NCBI GenBank assembly: GCA_963630775.1 | Contig: CAVGNU010000004.1 | Location: 859-64,858, forward strand | Direction of reading: 5' to 3' | Source: Bacteroides fragilis | GTDB taxonomy: Bacteria; Pseudomonadota; Alphaproteobacteria; Rs-D84 | DNA length: 64,000 nt | Shown here: piece by piece, positions 7,384 through 51,095 of the stretch | Layout of the letters: every line of letters starts with the position of its first letter | Numbering within the stretch: position 1 is the stretch's first letter | Program-made: the position numbers and the translations under genes | The notes under the pieces: generated by a model | Databases searched by the model: none | What the model was told of the DNA's origin: nothing | The model's input: only the letters and a program-made list of their open reading frames with translations

Positions 7384-7465
7384 ATTCAGATCTCCTTCTT
7401 GTGTAAAAAGGTTAGCAAATTGATTTGACATTTGGCAAGAAGAAATATAAAATGTGTCGGCGCAA

Positions 7466-7541
7466 GGGGTTGTAGCTCAGTTGGTAGAGCACTTGCATGG
7501 CATGCAAGGGGTCGTCGGTTCGAGTCCGATCAGCTCCACCA
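7466..7541 (+). tRNA. tRNA-Ala (anticodon GGC)
   Basis: Hand-folded cloverleaf. Acceptor GGGGTTG/CAGCTCC carries the G3:U70 Ala identity pair. Anticodon loop is ATGGCAT, T-loop is GGTTCGAGTCC, and CCA is encoded. Confidence 0.95.
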
Positions 7542-7546
7542 GTATG

Positions 7547-7623
7547 GCGGATGTAGCTCAGTTGGTTAGAGCACTGGTTTGTGGTACCAGGTGTCGCCGG
7601 TTCGAATCCGGTTATCCGCCCCA
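7547..7623 (+). tRNA. tRNA-His (anticodon GTG) with encoded G-1
   Basis: 8-bp acceptor GGCGGATG/TATCCGCC including G-1:C73. Anticodon loop is TTGTGGT, T-loop is TTCGAAT, and CCA is encoded. Confidence 0.95.
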
Positions 7624-7634
7624 TTTTAACAGAA

Positions 7635-7662
7635 AACGTCAACCGAAAGGTTGGCGTTTTTT
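7635..7662 (+). terminator. Intrinsic terminator after the tRNA-Ala/tRNA-His pair
   Basis: aacgtcaacc-gaaa-ggttggcgtt hairpin followed by a T-run. Confidence 0.7.
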
Positions 7663-7900
7663 GTTAAACCGGTTCGTCTATTCACCGGATTCGAACCGAG
7701 GTTCGCTTACGAGTAAGCGTGGCAAGTTGTATAACGCCGCCACGCGCTAACGAGTGGTGAGCGCAGCGAACAATACGCAGCTGTCCAGCATTGCTGGACA
7801 GCAAGGCACTCGGTTATCCGCCAGCCGAATTGCTGCCCGCCGTTCAGGCGGGTATTTTTAATAATTCTGGGCGGGTCGGATTCGAACCGAGGAATGGGAA
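7663..7900 (+). repeat. tRNA-3'-linked repeat element (about 1.5 units), same family as 51096-51659
   Basis: ggattcgaaccgagg occurs at 7687-7701 and again at 7878-7892, 191 bp apart. Blocks gagtaagc, gctaacg, gtgagc and acgcag are colinear with the tRNA-Arg-linked unit. There is a perfect hairpin at 7780-7802. A 12-nt copy of the tRNA-His 3' end (cggttatccgcc) lies at 7811-7822. Confidence 0.65.
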
Positions 7901-7953
7901 TGCGCCATCCGGCGCACTCATCTATTATCTGTTATCTATTCTCTATGCTCTAA

Positions 7954-7981
7954 TAAAAAATCCGCCCCAAACGGGGCGGGA
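7954..7981 (-). terminator. Intrinsic terminator of rne
   Basis: On the minus strand: cccgcccc-gttt-ggggcgga followed by tttttt. Confidence 0.7.
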
Positions 7982-7985
7982 TTCT

Positions 7986-9779
7986 TTAACCAATCAACTT
8001 CTGCCAGAATGTGGTCTTCTTTTGTTGCTTCTTGCGTTTGCGACGCGGGGCATTCATGGTCGTCTTTTTTGCGTCCATATGCTGGGCATCTTTCTTTTTC
8101 GCATCGGTTGACGGTGCGTATGCGTCCAACAAATCTTCGGTCTTGTTGGTTTCCGGGGCAACACGCTGAATAGAGTATTGGTCAATATTCATCATGCTGT
8201 CATCGCCAACAATAACGATTTCTGTTTCAAATTCGGATTCCATTGATGCCAGTTCCGCGCGCTTGTGATTCAACAGGTAAATCGCAACGTCGCTGGGGAC
8301 GGTCATAATGATTTTCTGGGCACTTTTTGCCAGCAATTTTTCCTGCAAATGGCGGAACATAATCAGTGCCGCGGTCTGGATTGATGGCACGACGCCCGCA
8401 CCCAAACAGTGTGGACACTGGACATACGATGTTTCAATGAAACTGCTGCGCAGACGCTGACGCGACAGCATCAACACACCAAACGTGTTGATTTTCGCAA
8501 CCTGTGTGCGGGCGCGGTCACGTTTCATAACCTCGCGCATTTTCATTTCCAGTTTGCGGTTGTTGCGTTCTTCTTCCATGTCGATAAAGTCAACCGCGAT
8601 AATTCCCGCCAAATCACGCAGACGCAGTTGTAAAGCGATTTCTTCGGCGGCCTCTAAATTAGTATTCAGGGCGGTTTGTTCGATATCTTTTTCCTTTATC
8701 GCGCGGGACGAATTGACGTCGATTGTAACCATGGCTTCGGTCTGGTTGATAACCAGTGACCCGCCCGATGGCAACTGAACATATGGGCCATGCAATCCTT
8801 CCAGTTGCTTTTCAACGCCGGCCTTGACCATCAATGGAACGGCGGCGTCCTTGTACTGAATCAACTGTTTGCGTGGTGCGCGGCCATACATTTGCTGGAA
8901 ATACGTTTTGGCGGCATCGTATGCCTCGTCCCCTTGGATAACCAGGATATCGTCCTTGTCCGCCAAGAAATCGCGAACGACACGGCGCAACAGGGAATCT
9001 TCGGTGTGAATGGTAACGGGCGCAACAGATTCCAACGTTGTTTTGCGGATTTCATTCCACAGATTTACCAAGTAATCATAGTCCGCCGCAATAGATGTTG
9101 CGTCTGCGCCCATTGCCGCGGTACGCAGCACAACGGTCATGCCCTTTGGAATTTTCAGGCCGTGCAAGATTTCACGCAAACGTGCGCGTTCGGATTTGTC
9201 CGAAATCTTTTTGGAAATGCCATAACTGTTGCGTTTGCGGGAATTTGGCATCAAAACCGCAAAACGACCCGCCAATGACAGATATGTTGTCATGGACGCG
9301 CCTTTTTGGCCACGTTCTTCTTTGACACCCTGAATCAACAAGATTTGCTTTGGTTTAATGACGTCCTGAATCTTGAACTCGTGCGCACGTTTAACAAATT
9401 CCTTGTTATCTTCGCCGGCACTGTGGTCGTCGTATTCGGCGACCTCATCATTTTCGTCATCTGGGTCATCGTCATCATCAACGATGTTTGCGTGTGCCAA
9501 TTCCAACAGTTTCTTTTTCTGTTCTGGCGATACCTGATAATAATCTGGGTGAATTTCAGAAAACGGCAAAAATCCATTCTTGCCCGTGCCGTAATCCACG
9601 AAAGCCGCCTGTAATGACGGTTCAACGCGTATAACTTTGGCCAAATAGATGTTGCCCTTTATCTGGGGTTTAGTTGTTGTTTCAACGTCGAAATCAGAAA
9701 CACGGTTTGTGGCAGAATCCACCACCACCACGCGGGTTTCCTCTGGGTGGACGGCGTCCACATAAATCTTTTTTGACAT
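7986..9779 (-). CDS. rne: Ribonuclease E/G family endoribonuclease (short form, no long C-terminal scaffold)
   Basis: 597 aa with an S1 domain (KGNIYLAKVIRVEPSLQAAFVDYG). An acidic insert (DDDDDPDDENDEVAEYDD) precedes the RNase E/G catalytic core. Confidence 0.9.
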   Translation of the reverse strand: MSKKIYVDAVHPEETRVVVVDSATNRVSDFDVETTTKPQIKGNIYLAKVIRVEPSLQAAFVDYGTGKNGFLPFSEIHPDYYQVSPEQKKKLLELAHANIVDDDDDPDDENDEVAEYDDHSAGEDNKEFVKRAHEFKIQDVIKPKQILLIQGVKEERGQKGASMTTYLSLAGRFAVLMPNSRKRNSYGISKKISDKSERARLREILHGLKIPKGMTVVLRTAAMGADATSIAADYDYLVNLWNEIRKTTLESVAPVTIHTEDSLLRRVVRDFLADKDDILVIQGDEAYDAAKTYFQQMYGRAPRKQLIQYKDAAVPLMVKAGVEKQLEGLHGPYVQLPSGGSLVINQTEAMVTIDVNSSRAIKEKDIEQTALNTNLEAAEEIALQLRLRDLAGIIAVDFIDMEEERNNRKLEMKMREVMKRDRARTQVAKINTFGVLMLSRQRLRSSFIETSYVQCPHCLGAGVVPSIQTAALIMFRHLQEKLLAKSAQKIIMTVPSDVAIYLLNHKRAELASMESEFETEIVIVGDDSMMNIDQYSIQRVAPETNKTEDLLDAYAPSTDAKKKDAQHMDAKKTTMNAPRRKRKKQQKKTTFWQKLIG

Positions 9780-22051: not shown

Positions 22052-22762
22052 ATGCAAAAATATATTGATGCACATTGTCATTATGTTGCCGATGCCATCG
22101 GCGTGGTTGCGGGGTTTGTGTATAATTCAGCGCAGCCGTCCGATTGGGCGCGTGCCATCGCGGCATCGCGCGCCACAGGTGGGGCGGGTGCGATTGGCGT
22201 CCATCCATGGTATGTGGATGAGTTGTCGCCCGATTGGGCGACCCAGATGGTGCGTGTATTGCGTGATAATCCAACATTGATGGTTGGCGAAATTGGTCTG
22301 GACAGGGCGCGCGGCAATATTGACACGCAAATGCCCGTGTTCCTGCGCCAGCTGGAAATCGCACACGAATTAAATCGCACGGTGCATATTCACTGTGTTC
22401 GTGCGTGGGACGTGATGTTAAAGGTGTTTGCGACGCGCCGCCCACTGCCACCGGCAATAATTATTCATGGCGGTGTCCCCGGTGCCGATATCGTGCGTGC
22501 CGTGATGCAACATACAAACGCGTACTTTTCATACGCTGCGGTGCGCAGTGATAAAATTGCCGTATCAATTTCGGCAACGCCAATTGATCGTATTTTGGTT
22601 GAATCAGACGCGGCGTCGCCCGCCGTTGCGCGTGCAATTTTGCCACGGACGGTGGAACAAATAGCGACCTTGTTGGGGCAAGATGTGCATGCCATGGCGG
22701 AAACAATTTACAATAACTCATACGGGGTAATTACACATGGCGGACAGATTACACAGAATTAG
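22052..22762 (+). CDS. TatD-family metal-dependent hydrolase
   Basis: N-terminal IDAHCHY motif, a GEIGLDR motif and conserved His/Asp positions (VHIHCV, IIHGG, VESDA). Confidence 0.85.
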   Translation: MQKYIDAHCHYVADAIGVVAGFVYNSAQPSDWARAIAASRATGGAGAIGVHPWYVDELSPDWATQMVRVLRDNPTLMVGEIGLDRARGNIDTQMPVFLRQLEIAHELNRTVHIHCVRAWDVMLKVFATRRPLPPAIIIHGGVPGADIVRAVMQHTNAYFSYAAVRSDKIAVSISATPIDRILVESDAASPAVARAILPRTVEQIATLLGQDVHAMAETIYNNSYGVITHGGQITQN

Positions 22763-23420
22763 ATTTTTGCTGGGTGATGCGGCGATTGAAAAATTGCGCG
22801 CCGCAACGGTCATGGTTGTTGGCTGTGGCGCGGTGGGGTCTTTTGCTATCGAGGCCTTGGCCCGCAGTGGCGTTGGTCATATCGTCGTGGTTGATTTTGA
22901 TACGGTCGCAGAATCAAACATCAATCGTCAACTGTTCGCATTGACATCAACCATCGGTATGGCAAAGGTTGACGTTGCTGCGGCGCGTATTCATGATATA
23001 AATCCCGATACAATCGTCACGCCGTACCAGATGTGTTTTGATGCACAAAACACGCCCGACGCTCACCCCGATTTTGTGATTGACGCGATTGATTCTGTGG
23101 ATTCCAAAATTGCGCTGTATAATTGGTGCAACGTACGTAATATACCGTTTATTTCCAGTATGGGCGCAGCGCGCAAAACCGACCCATCACAAATCAGGGT
23201 GGGACGGTTGGCCAAAACAACTGTGTGCCCATTGGCGGCAAAAATTCGCCGACTGGCACGTGATGCACATATTCCGGATTTCCCAGTTGTGTATTCAACT
23301 GAACCCGCCAACCCAAACGTTGCCGCCGGTCGCATATTTGGTTCTATTGTTACAATTACGGGGGTATTTGGCCTGAATTGTGCAAACTATGCTATAAAAT
23401 ATATCGTAGAACGTGCGTAA
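22737..23420 (+). CDS. tcdA: tRNA threonylcarbamoyladenosine dehydratase (ThiF/MoeB-like, TcdA/CsdL)
   Basis: VMVVGCGAVGSFAIEALARSGVGHIVVVDFDTVAESNINRQ nucleotide-binding fold; ~227 aa, typical of TcdA. Confidence 0.82.
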   Translation: MADRLHRIRFLLGDAAIEKLRAATVMVVGCGAVGSFAIEALARSGVGHIVVVDFDTVAESNINRQLFALTSTIGMAKVDVAAARIHDINPDTIVTPYQMCFDAQNTPDAHPDFVIDAIDSVDSKIALYNWCNVRNIPFISSMGAARKTDPSQIRVGRLAKTTVCPLAAKIRRLARDAHIPDFPVVYSTEPANPNVAAGRIFGSIVTITGVFGLNCANYAIKYIVERA

Positions 23421-23581
23421 AAACGCGGCAATCCGCATCGGTATATATTCAAAAAGGTGCGTATTTGTGCGGCTAAGAACGTTTTCCCAAGTGTAATAAA
23501 CGATTTGCACGTGTTGTGTGAAACATTTATAATAACCGTGTCTTATCACAGACAAAAACAACCTGCACAAAGGAGAAAAAG

Positions 23582-23794
23582 ATGAGAGGACTGGTAAATT
23601 ATGTCTTGAAACCGTTGACCTTTATCGGAGCCCTGAACTGGGGGCTGATTGGTATTTTTGGTTTCGATTTGGTCGCATGGATTTTCGGGTCTGCCACCAT
23701 CGCCAGCAGTATCGTTTACAGCATAATCGGTATTGCCGCATTGGTTTGGTTGATTTGGATTTTCATTGACCAGCCCGTACATAATGAACGCTGA
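23582..23794 (+). CDS. DUF378-family small membrane protein
   Basis: 70 aa; the segment LTFIGALNWGLIGIFGFDLVAWIFG is characteristic of DUF378; GGAGAAAAAG RBS. Confidence 0.8.
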   Translation: MRGLVNYVLKPLTFIGALNWGLIGIFGFDLVAWIFGSATIASSIVYSIIGIAALVWLIWIFIDQPVHNER

Positions 23795-23899
23795 TTGCGT
23801 TTCACAGTTTTCATGTCATTTTTCGCCCCCAACGGGGCGTTTTTACTGTTTGTGAATGTTGCGATTGCATGCCAAAATCGCGCGGTGATGTTTGATGGC

Positions 23900-24235
23900 T
23901 TATTTGGTGTTCATATTTTTCAGTGCATTGGCAACAACCGCTTTGTCAATTCGCTTTAATTTCCATGTGTCCAATGCGCGTTGAAACATTTCAACCTTGT
24001 GTGTGTCAAATTCGGCCGGCATCATGTCGCCCTTTATAGAATTGCAAATCTGGTGCGCTGGGAACAGGTTATCACGATAATCCGTGCCACCATGCATTTT
24101 TGGGATATGGTGGTCAATGGACATCTTTTGATTTTTCAATATTGGTTGACCGCAAATACTGCAATATACATCGTCGCACAGCAACAGTTCAAATTTCAAT
24201 GTTATGGTTATTTTATGTGTTTCTGTGCGTTCCAT
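23900..24235 (-). CDS. Stand-alone HNH endonuclease
   Basis: CSICGQPI...DHHIPKMHGGTDYRDNLFPAHQICNSIKGD is an HNH/CxxC motif. ATG 24235 has a GAGGT RBS. Confidence 0.8.
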   Translation of the reverse strand: MERTETHKITITLKFELLLCDDVYCSICGQPILKNQKMSIDHHIPKMHGGTDYRDNLFPAHQICNSIKGDMMPAEFDTHKVEMFQRALDTWKLKRIDKAVVANALKNMNTK

Positions 24236-24349
24236 GTGCGACCTCAATAAAAGTATATTATGCGATAACAATAGCGTCTTTTTGCCACCAATGTCAATGG
24301 GTTTTGTGCCGACAGAATGTGTGTGTTTTCGTTGACAAACGACAGGTGT

Positions 24350-24643
24350 ATGCTATTGTTTTTTTTGGGTTGCACAGGGGACGATAGTAAATCAGCAAAG
24401 TTCATATCAATAATATCTATTCAGGCCCAGATGCAGAATTTACTTTGTCTGATTTTTATTAAACTGTGCGCAGAATTGGCCACGTTATTCAATAACTTGG
24501 TACGCACGCCCGACACGCCCGAACCAGTGGTCGCCGACCCAAATTTCAAAACGGTTCAGGCATTCCAACACGTTCCCTCCATCACTGCCCAACCCGTCGC
24601 CCTGGGCCTGTACAAAGTGATGTGTAAACAAAAGACGAAATGA
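24350..24643 (+). CDS. Possible small lipoprotein (weak call)
   Basis: MLLFFLGCTGDD... has a lipobox-like LGC; the RBS is poorly spaced and no homology is recognised. Confidence 0.3.
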   Translation: MLLFFLGCTGDDSKSAKFISIISIQAQMQNLLCLIFIKLCAELATLFNNLVRTPDTPEPVVADPNFKTVQAFQHVPSITAQPVALGLYKVMCKQKTK

Positions 24644-24651
24644 ATATCAAA

Positions 24652-24676
24652 ACAAAAACCCCGCCAACGGCGGGGC
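24652..24676 (-). terminator. Intrinsic terminator after tRNA-Asn
   Basis: On the minus strand: ccccgcc-gttg-gcgggg followed by ttttt. Confidence 0.65.
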
Positions 24677-24683
24677 GAATCTT

Positions 24684-24759
24684 TGGCTCGGGCAACTGGA
24701 CTCGAACCAGTGACATACGGATTAACAGTCCGTTGTTCTACCGACTGAACTATGCCCGA
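24684..24759 (-). tRNA. tRNA-Asn (anticodon GTT)
   Basis: The reverse complement folds as a cloverleaf with acceptor TCGGGCA/TGCCCGA, anticodon loop CTGTTAA, T-loop GGTTCGAGTCC and encoded CCA. Confidence 0.95.
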
Positions 24760-24879
24760 ACAGCCCGCACATCTTATAATTTTTTTTTATGCATTTCAAG
24801 TGTTTTTTTCATTTATTGCAAACTGCATGCGGGGGTGGTATATTGGACGTGTCCAATATCAATAACAAAAGGAAAGATT

Positions 24880-25692
24880 ATGTTATTAAAAGGAAAAAAG
24901 ATTCTGATTACTGGCGTTGCCAACGATTGGTCTATGGCGTGGGCAATCGCAAAGCGCGCGCATGACGAAGGGGCGGAAATCGCGATGCCTTACGCGATGC
25001 CGAACTTGGAACGTCGCGTGCGCCCATTGGCCGAATCAATCGGTGCTAAATTTGTCCAAGAATGCAATGTTCAAAATGACGAACAGATGGACTCTTTGTT
25101 CGCGAACATTGAACGCGAATGGGGGCATTTGGACGGTGTGTTGCACGCGATTGCGTTTTCGGACAAGAACGAACTGACCGGTCGTTATGTCGACACAACC
25201 CGCGCGAATTTCAAGAATACTATGGACATTTCCGTGTATTCGTTGGTCGATTTGACACGCCGTGCGTCACGCCTGATGACAGATGGCGGCAGCATTGTCG
25301 CACTGACATATTTCGGTGGGGAAAAATCCGTGCCAAATTACAACGTGATGGGTGTTGCCAAATCTGCACTGGACAGCAGTGTTCGCTATCTGGCGTCTGA
25401 TTTGGGGCGTGATAACATTCGTGTAAATGCCATTTCGGCGGGGCCAATTATGACACTGGCGTCATCAGGCGTTGGTGGGTTCAAGGCGATGTTGCGCCTG
25501 AACGCGGAACAGACCCCATTGCGTCGCAATATGACATTGGACGATGTGTCGGGCGCGGCGGTGTATTTGTTCAGTAACCTGTCGTCGGCCGTCACGGGCG
25601 AGGTTCACCATGTTGACTGTGGCTATTCCACAACGGGAATGTTACCGAACGAATTAAAGGATATTTTGTTAAAGGGGCTGGATGAAAAATAG
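24880..25692 (+). CDS. fabI: Enoyl-[acyl-carrier-protein] reductase (NADH) FabI
   Basis: From ATG 24880 the translation is MLLKGKKILITGVANDWSMAWAIA.... It carries the Y-x6-K catalytic motif (YNVMGVAKSAL). The upstream part of the track ORF overlaps tRNA-Asn and is spurious. Confidence 0.93.
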   Translation: MLLKGKKILITGVANDWSMAWAIAKRAHDEGAEIAMPYAMPNLERRVRPLAESIGAKFVQECNVQNDEQMDSLFANIEREWGHLDGVLHAIAFSDKNELTGRYVDTTRANFKNTMDISVYSLVDLTRRASRLMTDGGSIVALTYFGGEKSVPNYNVMGVAKSALDSSVRYLASDLGRDNIRVNAISAGPIMTLASSGVGGFKAMLRLNAEQTPLRRNMTLDDVSGAAVYLFSNLSSAVTGEVHHVDCGYSTTGMLPNELKDILLKGLDEK

Positions 25693-28182: not shown

Positions 28183-28833
28183 TTATTTTAATCCAAATTT
28201 GTACGTGGCCCCGATATAGATTTCTGTCGCGTCAATCCGTGTCGTGGCGTATTCACCGCTACTGTTTTCAAATGCCAGTTTCCCATATCGGACATATTTC
28301 GCGCCCAGATTCAAATCCACACGGTCATTCAGTGCGAAATTCACACCGACCATTGCCTGTAATGATAAATCCAATGTTGAATCAGAAATATGTGGTGCTG
28401 CGCCGCTGATGTCGCCCCAAATACCGGTCAGCCCCAGTCCCAACCCCGCATATGGTTCGACCGCGCCACCAAACGTCTGGTACAGATATACGTTCAACAT
28501 ATTTGACCAAATGTCATAGTCGTGACGTGTGCCGTAGCGGGTGAACTTTGCACCGGTGTACGCGGTTTCAAATTCAATTTTTACATTGTCGGTCAGGCGA
28601 TTTCCAACGCTGATCCCGAACCCGAAATTATCGTCCTTTGGTGTTATGGTTGCACCACCAGTGATGTCGTATTTGAATGCGATATGTTCGTTTTTGTGCA
28701 GGCGAATCCCCACATAGTTATCACGACGTGCGGGCGTGCTGTATCCCATGTCGTAATCGTCATTGTACCAATCGTCCGCCATTGCCGGCATCACCGCACA
28801 GCATGCCAATAATAACGCAAATATTTTATGCAT
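28183..28833 (-). CDS. Outer-membrane beta-barrel protein (OMP_b-brl / Omp25-like)
   Basis: Signal peptide MHKIFALLLACCAVMPAMA, alternating amphipathic beta-strand pattern, and an aromatic C-terminal strand IGATYKFGLK. Confidence 0.75.
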   Translation of the reverse strand: MHKIFALLLACCAVMPAMADDWYNDDYDMGYSTPARRDNYVGIRLHKNEHIAFKYDITGGATITPKDDNFGFGISVGNRLTDNVKIEFETAYTGAKFTRYGTRHDYDIWSNMLNVYLYQTFGGAVEPYAGLGLGLTGIWGDISGAAPHISDSTLDLSLQAMVGVNFALNDRVDLNLGAKYVRYGKLAFENSSGEYATTRIDATEIYIGATYKFGLK

Positions 28834-28941
28834 AGTGTTTTTCCCTTTCCTAAAATTCCTATACGGGGATTATAATTATAAAATCTGGCATAACGCAAGT
28901 TGTTTGTGATATAATTCCATCACAGGGGCAGGGGGCATCAC

Positions 28942-30705
28942 GTGTCGCGACAACAAAACATAGATACAGCACAGGAAAAAAAGCGTCCATCATGGCGATG
29001 GCGGCTGTTTTTATTGCTGATGAATTTGATTTTGGTTGTGATGGCGGCGGTTGCAATTTACCTGACCATCATATTTTTACAGATGCCGTCATTGGACGCA
29101 ATATTGCACGAAACGCGACCTGCGGCGGTCGTTTTCTTGGACAAAGATGGCAATGAAATCCGCAGTGCAGGTCGTATTATGGGCACGCCTGTGTCGGTGG
29201 AAACACTGCCACCCCATGTATGGCAGGCGATTGTTGCAATCGAAGATAAACGCTTTTTTGAACACGGCCCGATTGATATACGGGGGATTACGCGCGCCAT
29301 GCTGTCAAACGCGATTCATGGGCGTATTGCGGCGGGCGGTTCGTCCATAACACAACAGACCGCAAAAAACATATTCCTGTCCCGCGAAAAAAAGATTTCG
29401 CGCAAGGCCCAAGAATTGATTCTGTCATATTGGCTGGAAAATCGGTTTGATAAAAATCAGGTTTTGGATTTATACATGAACCGCGTATCATTGGTTGGTG
29501 GTATGCGCGGGATTGATGCGGCGTCGCGCGTAATGTTTCAAACACCGGCCAATAAAATGACAATCGCACAATCGGCACAAATTGCCGCAATGTTGAAAGC
29601 CCCAACGTCATATAGCCCATTGAAAAATCCGCAGCGTAACATTCAACGTGCCCGTGTTGTATTACAGGAAATGGTACGGCAGGGATATATCACGCTGAAT
29701 CAGGCGCGCACCGCCGCCCGCGAATTGGCACCCGCCACGCCCGCACCCGACACAAATATATACCGCTATTGGACGGACTTTGTCTTGGACGAGGTTCGTT
29801 CCCGTATCGGCGCGCTGGATTCTGATTTGCTGGTATATACCACGATGGACATGAACTTGCAGGAACACGTTGCCGCGGTTTTGCCCGCGCATACGGATAA
29901 ATATCAGGGGGCTGTTGTCGCCATGACACCCGCTGGTGCGGTGCGCGCGATGGTTGGTGGTACGGATTATCAGACCAGCCAATTTAACCGCGCGACAACA
30001 ATGCGCCAACCCGGCAGTTCGTTCAAACCGGTCGTGTATCTGGTTGCGCTGGAACATGGTATGACACCGGATTCGTATGTCAATGATTCCCCATTCGCGA
30101 TTGGCGATTATAATCCAAAGAATTACAACGAACGCTATTATGGCGATATCACATTAGCGACCGCTTTTGCCAAGAGTGTAAATTCCGTGCCACTGAAATT
30201 GACCGAAACATACGGGATTGATTCCGTTTTGGACATGGCGGGGCGTTTGGGGGTCGGTACAAAACTGCGTCGTGAATATTCAACCGTGCTGGGCGCATCA
30301 GAAATGTCATTGCTTGATTTGACGACAATATATGCGGTGATTTGGAATAATGGTGCATCGGTGCGCCCATATTCAATTACAAAAATAACCGACCCGCGTG
30401 GCAATATTCTGTACGCACGCAATCCATCTGATGCGTTACAGGTCTTGCAGCCCCAGACGGTCGAATATATGATGGATTTGCTAGCAGACGTGGTGGTGCG
30501 CGGTACGGGGCGTCGTGCAAATACAACAGGCGTTTTGGGTGGTAAAACCGGCACAAGTAATAATAATCGTGATGCGTGGTTTGTTGGTGCGGTGCGCGAT
30601 TTGGTTATTGGCGTTTGGGTTGGTAACGATGATTTTACACCGATGTCATCTAAAATCACAGGCGGTACGGTTCCTGCTGAAATTTTCCACGATATTGTGA
30701 AATAG
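28942..30705 (+). CDS. mrcA: Class A penicillin-binding protein (transglycosylase/transpeptidase, PBP1A-like)
   Basis: GTG start and an N-terminal TM anchor. GT51 motifs are AIVAIEDKRFFEHGPID and GGSSITQQ. Transpeptidase motifs are SxxK (GSSFKP) and KTGT (GGKTGTSNN). Confidence 0.9.
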   Translation: MSRQQNIDTAQEKKRPSWRWRLFLLLMNLILVVMAAVAIYLTIIFLQMPSLDAILHETRPAAVVFLDKDGNEIRSAGRIMGTPVSVETLPPHVWQAIVAIEDKRFFEHGPIDIRGITRAMLSNAIHGRIAAGGSSITQQTAKNIFLSREKKISRKAQELILSYWLENRFDKNQVLDLYMNRVSLVGGMRGIDAASRVMFQTPANKMTIAQSAQIAAMLKAPTSYSPLKNPQRNIQRARVVLQEMVRQGYITLNQARTAARELAPATPAPDTNIYRYWTDFVLDEVRSRIGALDSDLLVYTTMDMNLQEHVAAVLPAHTDKYQGAVVAMTPAGAVRAMVGGTDYQTSQFNRATTMRQPGSSFKPVVYLVALEHGMTPDSYVNDSPFAIGDYNPKNYNERYYGDITLATAFAKSVNSVPLKLTETYGIDSVLDMAGRLGVGTKLRREYSTVLGASEMSLLDLTTIYAVIWNNGASVRPYSITKITDPRGNILYARNPSDALQVLQPQTVEYMMDLLADVVVRGTGRRANTTGVLGGKTGTSNNNRDAWFVGAVRDLVIGVWVGNDDFTPMSSKITGGTVPAEIFHDIVK

Positions 30706-30756
30706 TTCTGTAAAATCTGTTTTTATCGTTGCTGGATTTGTGATATAATACCAAGT

Positions 30757-31734
30757 ATGACAGGAAGCAAATTTTTATTTTTGTTGCCGGTTTTGTCCGT
30801 CCTGATGGGTGGCACGGCACATGCAAATTGGCAATATGACGGCACGTACATTGGCGACGGTTGGTATGCCGATGATGGCGCACGCTTTACAATATCTGTG
30901 CGTGGCGGTATGTCATATGGCACTGCGAAAATCCAGAATGATGTTGGCGCGTTATCAAATGAGTATTGGTATAATCCGACCGATGGTATGGTTATTACGG
31001 CGGCATATTACGACAGTTTGTCCACCGAACAACAGGCCGCATTCACATTTGCGGGCATTGGTGAATTGGGCGATGTTGGTGCACGGGAAAACTATTCAGA
31101 ATTTTCATTTGCAGCGGGCGCATCAATTGGCTGGGTATTGCCTAATCGTCCCCAGTGGCGTCTGGAATTGGGCTGGGATCACATCAGCGAAAGTGAATAT
31201 AACATCGCTCCGTTGTTTGAAGGGGACATGCCACTGACCGGTGGCGACGTGTCTGGTCTGGTGATACAGGTTCAGTCCGGTGCGGTTCAGTCAAAAATCA
31301 CCACTGATATTATCAGCGCGATGGTATTCTATGATTTCTTTGACGGATTGCAAAAACCGACGCATACATTGATTCCATACATCGGGTTTGGTGCGGGCTA
31401 TGTTGACAGCAAGACCACATTAAACCTGTCGGATTTGTATGGCGATTTATCGACATCGGTTGATTTACAGAATTTCGGTAAATTGGACGATTACAATGTA
31501 TTACAGTTCTATCGTTCGGAACATGATACATCAACGGTTGCGGGTGTGGTGTCGCTGGGCGCGTCGTACGGTTTATCGGAAACAATGTTTTTGGATTTTG
31601 GCGTGCGTGCGGCATATGTGCCACGTATCAAATGGACGCTGACAAATTCAGACAATTCGCGCGAACGCGATTGGTTCAGTGCCAAAGATATGGTATACAT
31701 CAACGCAATGCTGGGCCTGCGGTTTGAATTCTGA
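30757..31734 (+). CDS. Outer-membrane beta-barrel protein (porin-like)
   Basis: Signal peptide MTGSKFLFLLPVLSVLMGGTAHA, beta-strand periodicity, and a C-terminal LGLRFEF with terminal Phe. Confidence 0.7.
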   Translation: MTGSKFLFLLPVLSVLMGGTAHANWQYDGTYIGDGWYADDGARFTISVRGGMSYGTAKIQNDVGALSNEYWYNPTDGMVITAAYYDSLSTEQQAAFTFAGIGELGDVGARENYSEFSFAAGASIGWVLPNRPQWRLELGWDHISESEYNIAPLFEGDMPLTGGDVSGLVIQVQSGAVQSKITTDIISAMVFYDFFDGLQKPTHTLIPYIGFGAGYVDSKTTLNLSDLYGDLSTSVDLQNFGKLDDYNVLQFYRSEHDTSTVAGVVSLGASYGLSETMFLDFGVRAAYVPRIKWTLTNSDNSRERDWFSAKDMVYINAMLGLRFEF

Positions 31735-31742
31735 CAAACGGG

Positions 31743-31769
31743 GCGTTGCCCCGTTTGTCATACCGTGTC
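31743..31769. terminator. Bidirectional terminator hairpin
   Basis: Perfect hairpin gacaaacggggc-gtt-gccccgtttgtc between convergent genes. Confidence 0.6.
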
Positions 31770-31804
31770 CATGTTCGCTGACATCGCGCCATGTGGCGCG
31801 TTCT

Positions 31805-32059
31805 TTAATTACTGTAACAACACGGGCTGGCATATGTATACGTGCCGGTTGCGTCGCTGCCCGTTGTACCCGACGGTATACAACATTCGGTTATTGATGT
31901 TGCGCCCGCAGCGGATGTGCCGGGTGATGGGCATGCTTTACAATCACCAGATGACAAATAATACCCAGCATTACAGGATGTGTATGTTTTTGTTGTTGCA
32001 ACACAATCTGCATATGCTGTACCAACAATTAGTATTGGGAAAATCAAAAGAACTTTCAT
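31805..32059 (-). CDS. Small Cys-rich exported protein (paralog A)
   Basis: From ATG 32059 (AGGAG RBS) the translation is MKVLLIFPILIVGTAYA plus a mature ~67 aa with 9 Cys. It contains SCNAGYYLSSGDCKACPSPGTSAAGATSITEC and shares TTGSDATGTYT with its neighbour. Confidence 0.6.
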   Translation of the reverse strand: MKVLLIFPILIVGTAYADCVATTKTYTSCNAGYYLSSGDCKACPSPGTSAAGATSITECCIPSGTTGSDATGTYTYASPCCYSN

Positions 32060-32073
32060 TTTTCTGCTCCTGG

Positions 32074-32433
32074 TTATAGTTGGCAAAAACATTCGTCCGT
32101 AACATTAGAAGCGTCCATTGAATACGTCATATAACATGGGACTTTTGTGCTCGTTCCAGTACATGTTCCATATTCTTGGGTATATGTTCCCTTGGTGTCA
32201 GTGCCAGTTGTTGAATCGCGCTTACAAGTCGTGCTAGTTATGCTAGGTGTACTCCATCCACTTGGGCACCCAATAACAGTTCCCGTCCTGCCAGTTGGGC
32301 AACAACAATAGCCGCTCGGTATATCTTGTATGCAAACCTCAAACGACACGCACGCTATTGCATATGTTACAGTTGGGGATATTAGAATGGCGCATATCGG
32401 AATAAGCGCGATGTAAATATTAGGTTTTGCCAT
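32074..32433 (-). CDS. Small Cys-rich exported protein (paralog B)
   Basis: 119 aa with a hydrophobic N-terminus (IYIALIPICAILISPTVTYA), 13 Cys and a GGAG RBS. It shares the IPSG...TTGTDTKGTYT...C motif with 31805..32059. Confidence 0.6.
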   Translation of the reverse strand: MAKPNIYIALIPICAILISPTVTYAIACVSFEVCIQDIPSGYCCCPTGRTGTVIGCPSGWSTPSITSTTCKRDSTTGTDTKGTYTQEYGTCTGTSTKVPCYMTYSMDASNVTDECFCQL

Positions 32434-32440
32434 GAATCAA

Positions 32441-32566
32441 TCTCCTTTTTTGTTTTAGACAGCAAAAACCACCAAATATTTGGTGGTCAGGAGGTTGAGA
32501 ACAATTGTCAGAAATTGTGTCGTGTATTGAATATTCCACGAACCCTCCTGACCTAAAATCAGGAGA
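32441..32566 (-). promoter_or_regulatory. Candidate structured leader or small RNA ending in an intrinsic terminator, upstream of Cys-rich gene B
   Basis: Minus strand elements in order: hairpin ggagaaaaataatctcc; then a 10-bp stem ggtcaggagg...cctcctgacc enclosing ~50 nt; then ccaccaaatatttggtgg+ttttt about 25 nt before the RBS. No known riboswitch motif recognised. Confidence 0.35.
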
Positions 32567-32762
32567 TTATTTTTCTCCAAGACAATAAAAATGGCGCAAA
32601 CTGTGCACCACGACTATCCGTCTTGACGCTGACATTCGGGTTCTCACACCCCATCGTTGGAACACCCAACGACAAATTGATTTTATGATGTTTATAAAAT
32701 AATTACAAGCAGAAAAAAGTTCATCCGTATCCGCAGATGCTCCGCCACGATAAAAATAATGC

Positions 32763-32796
32763 GTCTGCCATTCGGCGGACACAATCATTGCTCTCT
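32763..32796. repeat. Inverted copy of the 1721-1754 repeat module (hairpin plus cattgctctct); probably also the comM terminator
   Basis: gtctgccattcggcggacacaatcattgctctct compared with the reverse complement of 1721-1754 (tgtccgccattggcggacacattcattgctctct): about 30/34 identical. Confidence 0.7.
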
Positions 32797-32819
32797 AACA
32801 AATGTGATATCCCCGTTTG

Positions 32820-34343
32820 TTAGAGTTTTGTAGCGTATTTCCCACGGTTGATTGGGCGATATGACAGCGCCTCTGCAATGTCTGACATTTCGATGTTAGC
32901 GCGCCCCGCCAAATCGGCGATGGTGCGCGCAATGCGGCGTACGCGATTGTATCCGCGTGCCGACATGCCCATCTTGTCCGCGGCGGTGTTCAAAAAGTTC
33001 TGTAATTCTGTCGTCAATTTTGCCGCCGCGTCCAATTCCGGTCCGTCCAGACGTGCATTCAGGCAACCTTGACGTGCGATTTGGCGATTGTATGCCGCAA
33101 CAACGCGGGCGCGAATTTGCGCACTGGTTTCGCGCGGTGCGTCCGACGCCGTATTCATTTCCCATGGATTGACCGCATCAACATCCACGTGCAGGTCGAT
33201 TCTGTCCAACAACGGCCCTGATATTTTATTCTGGTACGCTTCGGCGCATCGGGGGGCGCGCGAACAGGACAGGGCGGCATTTCCCAAATGTCCGCACGGA
33301 CATGGGTTCATTGCCGCAATCAGTTGAAAACGCGCAGGGTATGTTGCGGTGTTTTTCGCGCGCGAAATCATAATTTTGCCTGATTCCATCGGCTGGCGCA
33401 GGATTTCCAACGTTGCGCGATTAAATTCCGGCAATTCGTCCAAGAACAGCACGCCATTGTGTGCCAGCGATATTTCCCCCGGATGTGCGTTCGCGCCACC
33501 ACCCGCCAATGCCACCTGTGATGCAGTATGATGCACACTGCGGAATGGGCGAGTGCGCACCAGACCGCGCCCGTCCAGTTGTCCTGCGATTGAATAGATA
33601 ATTGACGTTTCCAAAATTTGTTCAGCGGTCATTTCTGGCATAATTCCCGACAACCGTGATGCCAGCATTGTTTTCCCCGACCCCGGTGGCCCAACCATCA
33701 GCATTGCGTGCCCGCCCGCCGCGGCGATTTCCAGCGCGCGTTTCGCAGATTCTTGGCCATGCACATCCGCCATATCGCCACATGTGGAGGCGGTCGTCAA
33801 CTGTGCTGGCGCATCTGGCACACCCAGTGTCAATTTGCCACTGAAATGGTTTATCAGTTCCAGTACATGATTCGGGGCCAATATGTCGGTGTGACCGGCC
33901 ATGCGGGCCTCGCCCCCTTGGGTGGCGGGACAAATTATGCCCATGTTGTGATTGTGTGCCCACACGCTGGCGGGTAACACCCCGTCCGTGCGCACGATGG
34001 TGCCGTTCAGTCCAACCTCGCCCAATATCAGGTAATGCGACAGTTTATCTTCGGGTAAAATCCCCAATGCGCATAAAATCCCGCACAGTATCGGCAGGTC
34101 AAAGTGCGAGCCACTCTTTTCAACGTCTGCGGGCGACAAATTCACCGTCAGACGTTTTGGCGGCAACGATATATTCAATGCGCCCAGCACGTTTTTTATG
34201 CGCTCTGCGGATTCTTTGACCGCGCGGTCGGCCAGACCAATGATGTTAAACTCTGGTTTCGACAAACCCGATGCCAACTGCACCTGAACATCAATAGGTG
34301 TCGCATCCATGCCGTTAAATATGATTGAATACAGTGAAATCAT
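32820..34343 (-). CDS. comM: YifB/ComM family Mg-chelatase-like AAA+ ATPase
   Basis: 507 aa with an N-terminal Lon-protease-like domain, Walker A GPPGSGKT, a VLFLDELPEF Walker B region and a C-terminal ChlI-like domain. Confidence 0.9.
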   Translation of the reverse strand: MISLYSIIFNGMDATPIDVQVQLASGLSKPEFNIIGLADRAVKESAERIKNVLGALNISLPPKRLTVNLSPADVEKSGSHFDLPILCGILCALGILPEDKLSHYLILGEVGLNGTIVRTDGVLPASVWAHNHNMGIICPATQGGEARMAGHTDILAPNHVLELINHFSGKLTLGVPDAPAQLTTASTCGDMADVHGQESAKRALEIAAAGGHAMLMVGPPGSGKTMLASRLSGIMPEMTAEQILETSIIYSIAGQLDGRGLVRTRPFRSVHHTASQVALAGGGANAHPGEISLAHNGVLFLDELPEFNRATLEILRQPMESGKIMISRAKNTATYPARFQLIAAMNPCPCGHLGNAALSCSRAPRCAEAYQNKISGPLLDRIDLHVDVDAVNPWEMNTASDAPRETSAQIRARVVAAYNRQIARQGCLNARLDGPELDAAAKLTTELQNFLNTAADKMGMSARGYNRVRRIARTIADLAGRANIEMSDIAEALSYRPINRGKYATKL

Positions 34344-49367: not shown

Positions 49368-49940
49368 ATGAAATCGTTCACATTTGCCGTCGTGCTGGCA
49401 ATCGCACCAATCGCCGCCAATGCCGGCATATACAACACGGGAAATTGGTGGCCATATTTGACATCTGATTTCGGTATAACATATACCGATGCCACAATTC
49501 ACGGTTATGATATGGGCGGTTTCACCGGCGTGTTCCGCATCGGTGCGGGTGCGCGCAACGACCGCACGCGTATTGGCGTCACGTACCAGAAACGCGACAC
49601 AATCAGTGAACTGTTTTCATCATGGTTGACCCAGACGAACGCCACATTGGACGAACAGGCCGTTATGGTCAACGTGTCATACGACATTATTTCAACAAAT
49701 TGGGTCGCCGTGTACGTTGGCGCGGGGGCGGGCGCAAATTTCTATGATTTCAAATTGGAATACGACGACGACCGTCCGGATTATACAGACAGCGGCACGG
49801 GGGTCATAGGCAATCTGTCTGCGGGAATTGTTTTACGCATTTCACATCTGGGGATAACATTGGGGGCGGACTATGGCTATATATCGCACCCACGTTCAAC
49901 CACAATCACACCGCGGGTTGGCGTGAACATCAGTTTTTAA
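49368..49940 (+). CDS. Small outer-membrane beta-barrel protein (8-strand OmpW/Opa-like class)
   Basis: Signal peptide MKSFTFAVVLAIAPIAANA, alternating strands, and a C-terminal VGVNISF. Confidence 0.7.
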   Translation: MKSFTFAVVLAIAPIAANAGIYNTGNWWPYLTSDFGITYTDATIHGYDMGGFTGVFRIGAGARNDRTRIGVTYQKRDTISELFSSWLTQTNATLDEQAVMVNVSYDIISTNWVAVYVGAGAGANFYDFKLEYDDDRPDYTDSGTGVIGNLSAGIVLRISHLGITLGADYGYISHPRSTTITPRVGVNISF

Positions 49941-50718
49941 CCAAGCATTTTTCCAAGATTTTCTTTTCATCATCGGTGCGTTCGGCATCGGCGGACGCGT
50001 CGCGCCCCAGAATCCCAACGCATGATTTGAAATAGTTATCGTCCGGACACGCAAAGCATTTCTGCATCAAACTGGCGGAATATTTTGTGTATGTTTCCTT
50101 GGCCACACATCGTTTTTCTGTCTGATCCCAGAATTGCGTCCCAGAATCACACTTTACGCAAATATTGTTGGCGCTGATACCCTGATATTGGGTTGTTTCG
50201 CACGCAACACATGTGTTGGATGTGGCGGATTCAAATGCCTGAACATTACCGCACGGTTCAATACATGCGCTGTTACGTTTTATCGTCCCCGTTGGACAGT
50301 TGTCTGGCACAGTGCATTCAACCTCTGATATCGTGTTGCCACAAACGTCTGTGACAACCTCGTACGTGCATTTACCACTGGTCAACTGTTTTTCTGCGGT
50401 TGTACGTATTTCCCATGTTGTGCCTTCAACAAATTTACCCGCTTCGCTCAGTGTGCCATTACAACACCAGAATGTCCGCCCATTATGGGTAAAAGATTGG
50501 TGGTGATAGTACCAGTTTTTTTTGTTTTTTTTGATTGCCTTGTTTCCACGGCACGATTGTGTTTGTGCGCCACAGAACCAGTATTCATCGCTCTTGAACC
50601 AACTGCCGCCATCATCACACCAGCATTCGTTATTATATCCCTCATAAAACTTTGCATCGGCATTACCGGCCATAAACAAGCCAATCAGTATGGGCAGAAT
50701 GAATTTGCTTTTTGTCAT
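49930..50718 (-). CDS. Cys-rich exported protein (262 aa, 31 Cys) with C-x2-C-containing repeats
   Basis: Signal peptide MTKSKFILPILIGLFMAGNADA. The repeats include CPTGTIKRNSACIEPC, CVACETTQYQGISANNICVKCDSGTQFWDQTEKRC and CFACPDDNYFKSC. Confidence 0.65.
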   Translation of the reverse strand: MTKSKFILPILIGLFMAGNADAKFYEGYNNECWCDDGGSWFKSDEYWFCGAQTQSCRGNKAIKKNKKNWYYHHQSFTHNGRTFWCCNGTLSEAGKFVEGTTWEIRTTAEKQLTSGKCTYEVVTDVCGNTISEVECTVPDNCPTGTIKRNSACIEPCGNVQAFESATSNTCVACETTQYQGISANNICVKCDSGTQFWDQTEKRCVAKETYTKYSASLMQKCFACPDDNYFKSCVGILGRDASADAERTDDEKKILEKCLVKN

Positions 50719-50809
50719 TTTGTTTTCTCTCCATTGCAGCGCGTAGCAACGTACTTATTATCACCATAATAATACGTTAAATTACACTTTTTTGCAATCA
50801 CAATTTATG

Positions 50810-51095
50810 TTCATTGTCATTCCGTGGCGCGCCCACGGAATCTAGGTTATGGTGTTGCGCCATCGGCGCATATATTTGTCATTCCTGCTCCGGGCCCCGC
50901 AAAATCGTAAGATTTTGTGGGTGGGCAAAGGCAGGAATAGAGACTAAGCAGTGCGAACGTAGTGAGCCAACCAAAAGACCACCTCCCCGCTACGCGGTAC
51001 TCCTCCACAGGAGGAGAACTTGCTACGTTCTTGTCGCGGGCTAAGTTCCCCTCCGGTGGAGGGGTGTCCGCAGGACGGGGTGGTCTTTTTATCTT
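50810..51095. repeat. Second mosaic cluster of the same palindromic modules (C-G, B with nested D, F-E', E)
   Basis: C is at 50814-50846 and G at 50855-50870. B arms at 50876-50888 and 50931-50940 are split by D at 50892-50924. F is gactaagcagtgcgaacgtagtgagccaa. E-left-like ttcccctccggtggaggggtgtc lies at 51046-51068. Confidence 0.8.

Follow-up and report, generated by a model that had tools for sequence, protein, structure and literature searches.

A predicted structured leader RNA and a pair of exported cysteine-rich proteins, one conserved and one variable, in gut Alphaproteobacteria of the Rs-D84 lineage

The described systems closest to the locus considered here are of several kinds. 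The chlamydial proteins OmcA, a lipoprotein, and OmcB are cysteine (Cys)-rich components of the cell envelope, and other points of comparison are offered by the Ephrin_rec_like and TNFR-type repeats, the variant-specific surface proteins (VSP) of Giardia, the two-peptide bacteriocins and, at the level of RNA, riboswitch and attenuator leaders. The locus resides in a stretch of 64,000 nucleotides (nt), hereafter the window (assembly GCA_963630775.1, contig CAVGNU010000004.1, positions 859–64,858 of the forward strand), which is labelled Bacteroides fragilis and is placed by GTDB in the alphaproteobacterial lineage Rs-D84. Bacteria of Enterousia and the order Rs-D84 have genomes mostly smaller than 1 Mb, lack respiration and most biosynthesis, have been proposed to obtain metabolites from other cells, and encode many hypothetical membrane proteins that are possible mediators of cell contacts (PMC12306168). 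The literature that we found consists of genome-level descriptions of Enterousia/Rs-D84 and contains nothing on the two proteins, A and B, or on the leader RNA described below. On the minus strand of the window, leader, B and A form what appears to be a self-contained three-part cassette, in which a putative regulatory RNA precedes a predicted co-transcribed pair of genes for exported Cys-rich proteins. Our favoured reading, to which we assign a probability of roughly 55%, is that the cassette specifies a leader-controlled surface or extracellular pair, with a constant A and a variable B, that would serve contact with other cells or with the host.

Gene B (32074–32433) encodes a protein of 119 amino acids (aa), with a signal peptide at residues 1–25 and a mature part of 94 aa, and is the variable partner; gene A (31805–32059) encodes the conserved partner of 84 aa, with a signal peptide at residues 1–17 and a mature part of 67 aa. 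The initial annotation of this DNA had pointed to two adjacent minus-strand open reading frames (ORFs) of these lengths, with N-terminal export signals followed by Cys-dense mature peptides, and both observations hold. The ORFs are where they had been placed, each protein starts with a K/R n-region, a hydrophobic core and an AXA-type signal peptidase I site (AYA↓DC in A and TYA↓IAC in B), as in Sec substrates, and there are 8 Cys per 67 mature residues in A and 11 per 94 in B. The start of gene A is the ATG at 32059, 14 nt after the stop of B; the program-made ORF list had given a 95-aa version from 32092, whereas all homologs begin at the MK... start. By sequence reading, both genes are preceded by a Shine-Dalgarno sequence AGGAG, that of B (32442–32446) being located 8 nt before the ATG and complementary to a CCUCC strand of the leader, and that of A (32067–32071) lying within the 14-nt spacer between the two genes. 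A lipoprotein reading was rejected: A, B and their orthologs show no consistent lipobox [LVI][ASTVI][GAS]C before the first Cys, the preceding residues being YAD in A, AIA in B and ARS, SIT, MTI, LTL or TTG in orthologs. A hydrophobic C-terminal segment is likewise absent from A and B.

We regard A and B as real genes and not chance ORFs, because diverged orthologs, down to 35%–55% identity, keep all core Cys of both proteins and because the order B-then-A, with the genes 3–15 nt apart, recurs at 17 places in metagenome-assembled genomes (MAGs) of related gut Alphaproteobacteria (Candidatus Enterousia and relatives). When A or B served as the only query against 5.8 billion proteins, no more than three relatives of A and two of B came up, and many more were obtained by scanning species-representative genomes and then running local hidden Markov model (HMM) searches. 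All homologs belong to uncultured Alphaproteobacteria of the gut, which carry the label Candidatus Enterousia, ‘uncultured Rickettsiales’ or just Alphaproteobacteria and whose hosts are, among others, humans, chickens, deer, yak, sheep and horses. The search for further paralogs that had been suggested at the outset proved productive, revealing up to four B–A cassettes per genome (four in BRZ_IT__bin13) and a large family of A-type proteins; small disulfide-rich secreted proteins, initially thought to be unusual in bacteria, number dozens per ~1-Mb genome in this clade. The closest database relative of B is merely 90% identical and originates from a 1.4-kb metagenome contig, because the intact ortholog in the near-identical assembly GCA_963648225.1 (L043 9630–9990) is not annotated as a gene. 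In one cassette (L014 8001–8219), A is frameshifted after residue 51, as a pseudogene or through an assembly error, and B is intact.

As judged from alignments, diversification affects B and largely spares A, whether paralogous cassettes of one genome or different strains are compared. Across cassettes, the mean identity of the mature proteins is 61% for A and 44% for B, with A the more conserved in 102 of 105 comparisons, and in the four cassettes of a single MAG the A copies are 83%–91% identical and their B partners 36%–61%. When the window is compared with GCA_963648225.1, which is 98% identical, B displays 36 nonsynonymous and 8 synonymous changes (dN 0.147, dS 0.10, dN/dS 1.47), the genes for PBP1A and the barrel-type proteins show no amino-acid change (dN = 0), and ComM has a dN/dS of 0.13; in two comparisons with a third strain, dN/dS of B is 0.76–0.88. 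The changes in B cluster in the mature residues numbered 26–42 and 98–119 in the 119-aa protein and leave the signal peptide, all Cys and a β-hairpin untouched. In a strain comparison over 20 kb in bins of 300 nt, the bin into which B falls diverges most (8.3% vs. a mean of 1.8%), and the leader is 99.5% identical in the strain in which the adjoining B has diverged by 8%.

Small disulfide-rich peptides that are exported and encoded side by side, one of them evolving fast and the pair occurring in several diverged cassettes per genome, could be taken for a secreted two-component antimicrobial of the bacteriocin type, or for a toxin, directed against competitors or partner cells, as had been surmised for these genes. 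The surroundings of the cassettes speak against this interpretation. The flanking genes of the 17 cassettes vary from place to place, with only lineage-local synteny with housekeeping genes, and no accessory gene for secretion, immunity, Dsb functions or processing travels with the cassette; in particular, neither an immunity gene, a dedicated ABC exporter, a processing protease nor a double-glycine leader is conserved beside the 17 cassettes. Moreover, A and B carry ordinary Sec signals, and the module that constitutes A is also the C-terminal part of larger proteins with several domains, of which there are dozens. The cassette is in addition part of a large regulon that comprises exported, Cys-rich proteins of unrelated kinds (both points are described below), and no similarity to toxins was detected in PDB or Pfam. 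With the usual hallmarks absent, we consider an antimicrobial or toxic function very improbable.

The leader came to light through ORFs of other genomes that had been extended too far: ahead of the true starts, several of them had a peptide-like string in common. In its full nhmmer extent, the element occupies 32445–32602 on the minus strand, outside the coordinates of the initial annotation, and ends 11 nt before the ATG of B; elements of this kind measure about 110–155 nt and were located by nhmmer at 42 places among the loci gathered around A-like genes. Leaders of loci whose B proteins are just 35%–55% identical still show 75%–88% nucleotide identity. A covariance model, R1, built from 12 copies, gave 124 matches in 96 sequence stretches, and its only strong match in the 64-kb window is the core of the leader upstream of B (32461–32568; 114.7 bits, E 6e-26). 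In a search run without filters, the two strands at this place differ widely, with 114.7 bits for sense and 17.4 bits for antisense. A comparison of 32380–32830 with the 4227 families of Rfam produced no relevant match at E ≤ 10, and only tRNAs reached the gathering score in the window.

From 5′ to 3′, the predicted structure consists of a hairpin P1 (CUCCUGA/UCAGGAG; 32559–32565 with 32545–32551), P2 with a conserved loop AAUAUUCAAUA (32537–32541 with 32520–32524), P3 (32513–32518 with 32501–32506), a strand CCUCCUGA, a terminator-like GC-rich hairpin P4 (32480–32486 with 32469–32475) and a nearly invariant U-tract (32464–32468), followed by the Shine-Dalgarno sequence and the start codon. 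The strand CCUCCUGA is also complementary to the central strand UCAGGAGG, and their pairing would generate an alternative helix, P1′ (32544–32551 with 32487–32494), which closes a three-way junction. The RNAfold z-score of the leader is −3.8, and the minimum-free-energy fold pairs CAAC-CUCCU of the leader with AGGAG-AUUG at the Shine-Dalgarno sequence of B.

Compensatory substitutions support this architecture. In the 124 aligned copies, 94.1% of the cells are paired and 22 of 25 pairs (322 cells) show compensatory changes, a result reached by none of 500 shuffles, and slid controls score at most 0.049 compared to the observed 0.341. For P1, which is outside the R1 model, the values are 94.3% paired and 43 double changes, again with 0 of 500 shuffles attaining as much. 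Given that covariation is found in both P1 and P1′, two mutually exclusive helices with a common strand appear to be maintained. G-U pairs are frequent. Furthermore, Shine-Dalgarno sequences of the GGAG type go with a CCUCC 3′ strand and those of the GGGG/GGGA type with CCCC(G), an association that is seen even among copies of a single genome (Fisher p = 1e-5). Of the 82 copies of the majority type, 50 show CAGGAG where the ribosome binds, a complementarity that extends beyond what ribosome binding needs. The tracking of Shine-Dalgarno type and leader strand type and the extended CAGGAG argue for a two-state model in which the leader masks the Shine-Dalgarno sequence. An anti-terminator for P4 with covariation was sought and not found, and no clean −35/−10 promoter was recognised upstream of P1. 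With a structure bearing compensatory changes and a fixed orientation and position, the element has the features of the generic class of structured cis-regulatory leader RNAs, to which we assign it on this sequence evidence.

A scan of a genome collection by RNA pattern alone (TCAGGAGGG-N40-70-AACCTCCTGACCACC) returned at least 116 stretches. Among the matches listed, all come from the same gut alphaproteobacterial clade, save for one MAG that carries the label Muribaculaceae, probably through mis-binning; a Shine-Dalgarno sequence and an ORF follow 34–86 nt after the scanned motif in 111 of 119 instances, and a crude test recognises signal peptides in 108 of these 111 downstream ORFs, while 96 of the 111 are also Cys-rich. 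In this set, the leader precedes almost exclusively genes for proteins that are predicted to be exported and mostly Cys-rich. The copies number seven or more per MAG, and one of the stretches is from a closed genome of 958,618 bp. The downstream proteins belong to many unrelated families, with a sample of ten giving scattered Pfam matches (Ephrin_rec_like, Trypsin, OmpA). At 14 of the 17 B–A cassettes the leader was detected, always before B and never before A, and a larger A-type paralog in a related assembly, P0081, also has a leader. Fully mapped leader elements end 8–20 nt before the ATG in most cases.

In some genomes, a different small Cys-rich family (MKIKI...C.G.YTT.T..F[ST][DN]..GSGY...NC.CP) stands in the place of B, behind the leader and before a two-repeat A-type gene (L015 6501–7311; also L016, L019 and L021, ~7420–8330), so that the A-type gene appears to have interchangeable upstream partners.

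Being multi-copy, dispersed and partly palindromic, the upstream element might alternatively be a mobile repeat of the MITE, Correia or RPE type and not a regulatory RNA of the cassette, and it is in keeping with such an origin that the reverse strand, too, gives nhmmer matches, with about half the score, and that the cassette is found in different genomic contexts. Mobility is nevertheless quite improbable as an explanation, considering that orientation and distance to the start codon are fixed in the 111 of 119 listed instances and in most of the fully mapped elements, that the genes downstream are almost all for exported proteins, that the covariance model discriminates sense from antisense so sharply, that the frequent G-U pairs would be A-C mismatches on the other strand and that both of the mutually exclusive helices are kept by compensatory changes.

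The A protein is the smallest member of a large family, in which a signal peptide is followed by variable Cys-rich N-terminal domains, ranging from none to more than 2,500 residues, and by a conserved C-terminal module; A consists of the module alone. The module comprises about 60 residues at the very C-terminus, with the pattern C-x7-9-C-x2-G-Y-Y-x5-11-C-x2-C-P-x-G-x13-16-C-[Y]-I-P-S-G-T-T-G-S-D-x-T-G-x-Y-T-Y-x3-C-[Y]-Y-S-N. Once the variants of the window's lineage are included, its end reads C-[YC]-I-P-S-G-T-T-G-S-D-x-T-G-x-Y-T-Y-x3-C-[YC]-Y-S-N, a cap common to dozens of larger paralogs. Six Cys of A are invariant. In the lineage of the window, the two Tyr beside the last two invariant Cys have both become Cys (C60/C81; CY...CY to CC...CC), a replacement also seen in the larger paralogs P0074 and P0081; such covariation suggests that the two positions touch and implies a fourth disulfide in A of this lineage. 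Giant exported ORFs of 1,500–2,750 aa (L025, L026, L032, L035 and L037) start with an A-like signal peptide and a ‘YTSCNAGYYL’ motif, which indicates that the small proteins share an N-terminal unit with the very large repeat proteins of the clade.

The Cys spacing had initially been likened to furin-like, GCC2-GCC3 and TNFR-type repeats, a resemblance that is borne out at the level of the family but extends neither to A itself nor to B. Two-repeat paralogs (P0033, P0035, P0039, P0041 and P0064) score 28.8–36.4 bits with Ephrin_rec_like (PF07699, formerly GCC2_GCC3), for which the gathering cutoff is 23.1 bits, and 14 of 51 family members match this model at E ≤ 0.01; relatives of A with an extra unit match Giardia VSP (PF03302, gathering score 31.4 bits), TNFR_ELAPOR1 and Furin-like_2 below threshold. 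A is matched by none of the profiles proposed initially (GCC2_GCC3, furin-like, TNFR and VSP) nor by any other Pfam model (E ≤ 10 for the full-length protein, E ≤ 0.01 for the mature protein), and neither A nor B matches an NCBIfam family at E ≤ 10; the sole Pfam/NCBIfam match for the pair is to BRINP at E = 0.06, which is not usable. The missing match is explained by the lack in A of one 18-residue C-x2-C...G-x-Y unit (ACAEGYYKSSAGTATSCTR) that is present in its two-repeat relatives (alignment A3); A is below the PF07699 cutoff and does not have the full 48-position, two-unit Cys pattern. On these comparisons, the A family contains an Ephrin_rec_like domain, and A itself is best described as a contracted derivative, with a single unit and a family-specific C-terminal cap. 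The AlphaFold model of A reaches a pLDDT of 79 in the best of five predictions, with about 54 in the other four, and its Foldseek neighbours are all Cys-rich domains of TNFR, Eph receptors, ELAPOR1 or taste receptors, at E values of 1.5–6 that are not significant; a TNFR/Eph-type fold is consistent with, though not proven by, the model and the family-level HMM evidence. Sequence-profile searches of PDB with the A and B families gave nothing below E = 0.01, R-spondin and TNFR21 appearing only at E > 1.

These similarities raise the question of whether the proteins are host-mimicking ligands recently acquired from a eukaryote, with A imitating a TNFR, ephrin-receptor or furin-type module, an idea likewise voiced at the outset. 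The repeat type matched by the family (Ephrin_rec_like, VSP, TNFR-like) is mostly eukaryotic, the structural neighbours of A are exclusively so, and the clade is host-associated and partner-dependent. Yet all detectable homologs belong to one bacterial clade, with no close eukaryotic sequence among 5.8 billion proteins, which disfavours a recent host origin; A stays below every Pfam threshold, its structural matches lack significance, and the C-terminal cap and B have no eukaryotic counterpart. Recent acquisition of a eukaryotic mimic is therefore quite unlikely in our estimation.

For B, no match was obtained in Pfam, NCBIfam or PDB sequences. AlphaFold, with 25 relatives in the alignment, predicts an all-β protein (pLDDT 87; 80–87 over five models), with which Foldseek found no PDB fold match. 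An exhaustive profile search identified 137 clusters of the B family among 1.84 billion cluster representatives, nearly all of them stand-alone proteins of 95–140 aa. We conclude that B represents a distinct, small, clade-restricted and very diverse family with a predicted all-β fold, and not an Ephrin/TNFR-type repeat protein. Of the 25 B orthologs, 22 have exactly 11 mature Cys, an odd number; from rare loss patterns in two sequences, the Cys left without a partner would seem to be the one that comes first after the signal peptide, and this conserved odd Cys may form an intermolecular disulfide. A-type proteins resemble known Cys-rich extracellular modules, whereas B, with its confidently modelled small fold, and the leader RNA have no described relatives.

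A and B are nevertheless related in part. The motif TTG(S/T)D..GTYT, which had been noted in both proteins, is indeed common to them: pairwise BLASTP gives a marginal E = 8e-4, and profile–profile comparison by hhalign a probability of 94% (E = 1e-7, 37 columns). The shared core spans about 40 residues (...G.C..CPS.G...C...TTGSD..GTYT) and ends in this stretch, which is the most conserved part of either family and which forms a tight β-hairpin in both models (predicted strands 49–52/55–58 of mature A and 50–54/57–61 of mature B). In A, the motif TTGSDATGTYT (residues 65–75; 31835–31867) is part of the family-wide C-terminal module; in B, TTGTDTKGTYT (residues 75–85; 32179–32211) covers alignment columns that are invariant or nearly so. 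The description of the two genes as tandem paralogs is accordingly apt for the common core and not for the remainder of the proteins. ‘IPSG’, which had also been listed as shared, occupies non-homologous positions (38–41 in B, before CCC, and 61–64 in A) and is thus a chance resemblance. Cognate A and B showed no simple concerted changes in the hairpin motif when L015 and L018 were inspected by eye.

How leader-controlled expression of a constant and a variable partner might work can be outlined as follows. In the OFF state, the central strand UCAGGAGG would pair with the 5′ CUCCUGA (P1), so that the 3′ strand CCUCCUGA would be free to mask the Shine-Dalgarno sequence of the gene, and P4 with its U-tract could stop transcription as an added termination checkpoint. 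In the ON state, UCAGGAGG would instead pair with CCUCCUGA in the P1′ three-way junction, presumably stabilised by some ligand, protein or condition, and the ribosome-binding site would be freed. B and A would then be exported, form their disulfides and act together outside the cytoplasm, A as a constant subunit and B as a variable, exposed, specificity-determining or antigenic one. Such a pair would be part of a protease-resistant surface or extracellular repertoire with which a partner-dependent bacterium touches other cells or its host. The association of A and B, their place at the surface, the part played by the odd Cys and the ON/OFF logic are all inferred from the sequences and their conservation. 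A more far-reaching version, which we find rather doubtful, would make the leader a new class of regulatory RNA that switches on the whole exported Cys-rich repertoire upon a signal from a partner or host, and A–B a two-subunit surface receptor or adhesin in which a constant TNFR/Ephrin-like A is disulfide-linked to a diversifying B of novel fold.

Several points weigh against the favoured reading. The case for an A–B complex is made from co-conservation alone. As Sec substrates with no lipobox, transmembrane segment or known sorting signal, the proteins have no evident route to, or hold on, the surface, and a periplasmic location is possible. For B, the dN/dS above 1 depends on a small number of synonymous sites, is not significant by itself and involves too few changes to prove positive selection. 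Divergence between strains is mosaic, with bins of 7%–8% at about 22403–22702, 23303–23602 and 24203–24502 (window 22100–25400 vs. L043) and long stretches, such as 28700–32000, that are virtually identical between the window and L043; from this mosaic and its other divergent patches, recombination between strains appears to be at work. The alignment of 124 leader copies was fitted to R1 and favours the modelled structure, and the correlation between Shine-Dalgarno and leader strand types (p = 1e-5) ignores the shared ancestry of the copies.

The possibility of periplasmic residence leads to another interpretation, in which A and B would be structural proteins, located in the periplasm or associated with the outer membrane, of a disulfide-cross-linked envelope lattice like that of chlamydial OmcA/OmcB. 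It would account for Sec signals with no recognisable route across the outer membrane, for the odd and conserved number of Cys in B, which suits intermolecular cross-links, and for the many Cys-rich exported proteins behind one regulatory leader. In addition, an outer-membrane β-barrel gene lies convergently downstream of the cassette in two lineages; in the window this is a 325-aa β-barrel-like, outer-membrane-type gene with no significant Pfam match (30757–31734, convergent with A). This neighbour is, however, not conserved across cassettes in general, B is hypervariable between strains and paralogs, which is unusual for a structural lattice, and genes of peptidoglycan synthesis are present, PBP1A being encoded downstream of the cassette, past the 325-aa barrel gene (28942–30705). 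No sequence similarity to OmcA/OmcB turned up, although no search was aimed at these proteins. We regard the lattice as unlikely; indeed, each of the four alternatives considered lacks its defining hallmarks.

Other features of the neighbourhood can be described briefly. Outer-membrane barrel-type genes stand on both sides of the PBP1A gene, the second being a 216-aa gene (28183–28833) that matches OMP_b-brl and the Opacity porin family and thereby identifies the organism as diderm. Between A and the 325-aa barrel-type gene, two GC-rich hairpins, a terminator-like site at 31785–31800 and a second one, recognised by sequence reading, at about 31733–31759, concern both strands; together they fill the 70-nt convergent gap (31733–31800), one overlapping the stop codon of the barrel-like gene, and are likely transcription stops for the converging genes, that is, a bidirectional terminator region. 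Upstream of the cassette is a ComM/YifB-type gene (32820–34343, minus strand). A further exported Cys-rich protein, of 262 aa with 21 Cys and a signal peptide, is encoded at 49930–50718 on the minus strand; it has no Pfam match and no detectable relation to A or B, and no R1-type leader was found upstream of it (best score 8.3 bits, 50790–50857). In one lineage only, a gene for a 327-aa protein with a CX3CX2C radical-SAM-type motif is divergent from the leader–B–A cassette (L003 26–1009 and L010 6240–7223), and no link between the two has been established.

Bacteria of the Rs-D84/Enterousia type are widespread in humans and livestock and uncultured, and the locus points to their likely contact interface: a large, clade-specific set of exported disulfide-rich proteins, made up in part of repeats of a kind that is elsewhere characteristic of eukaryotic surface proteins; within it, a conserved two-gene module of a constant and a hypervariable partner; and, as the mark of these genes, one shared structured RNA leader. 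With the leader as a simple sequence tag, the whole repertoire could be listed for any MAG, and the element is also a concrete candidate for a regulatory function. If the more far-reaching version outlined above is true, leader–B–A would constitute a bacterial constant-plus-variable recognition module.

Set against known systems, the cassette shows partial likeness to each. With Ephrin_rec_like/TNFR-type repeats, the A family shares the C-x2-G-Y-Y-x(5-11)-C-x2-C-P-x-G pattern, and the nearest structures of the A model are of this type; A differs in being one repeat unit short and in possessing its own β-hairpin cap, CYIPSGTTGSD.TG.YTY...CYYSN, and the family is bacterial, Sec-exported and endowed with tiny stand-alone members. 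Like the Giardia VSP, these are large, diversified Cys-rich families of a gut dweller, in which the N-terminal part varies and the C-terminal end is kept, and 8 of 51 A-family members have sub-threshold VSP matches; the best of these, however, scores 28.3 bits against a gathering score of 31.4, A of the window has no match, and A and B are bacterial proteins without a transmembrane anchor, a CRGKA tail or evidence of one-at-a-time expression. OmcA/OmcB resemble the pair in the adjacency of a small and a larger gene for Cys-rich exported proteins, in the dependence of the bacterium on other cells and in plausible disulfide cross-linking, whereas A and B have no lipobox and B is hypervariable. 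From two-peptide (class IIb-like) bacteriocins and microcins, A and B are set apart by the absence of a double-glycine leader, a conserved immunity gene and a dedicated exporter. Finally, the leader shares with riboswitches and attenuators its mutually exclusive covarying helices, a junction with conserved loops, a terminator and U-tract before the ribosome-binding site and a strand complementary to the Shine-Dalgarno sequence; it differs from them in that it matches no Rfam family and in that its regulon is defined not by a metabolic pathway but by export and Cys-richness.

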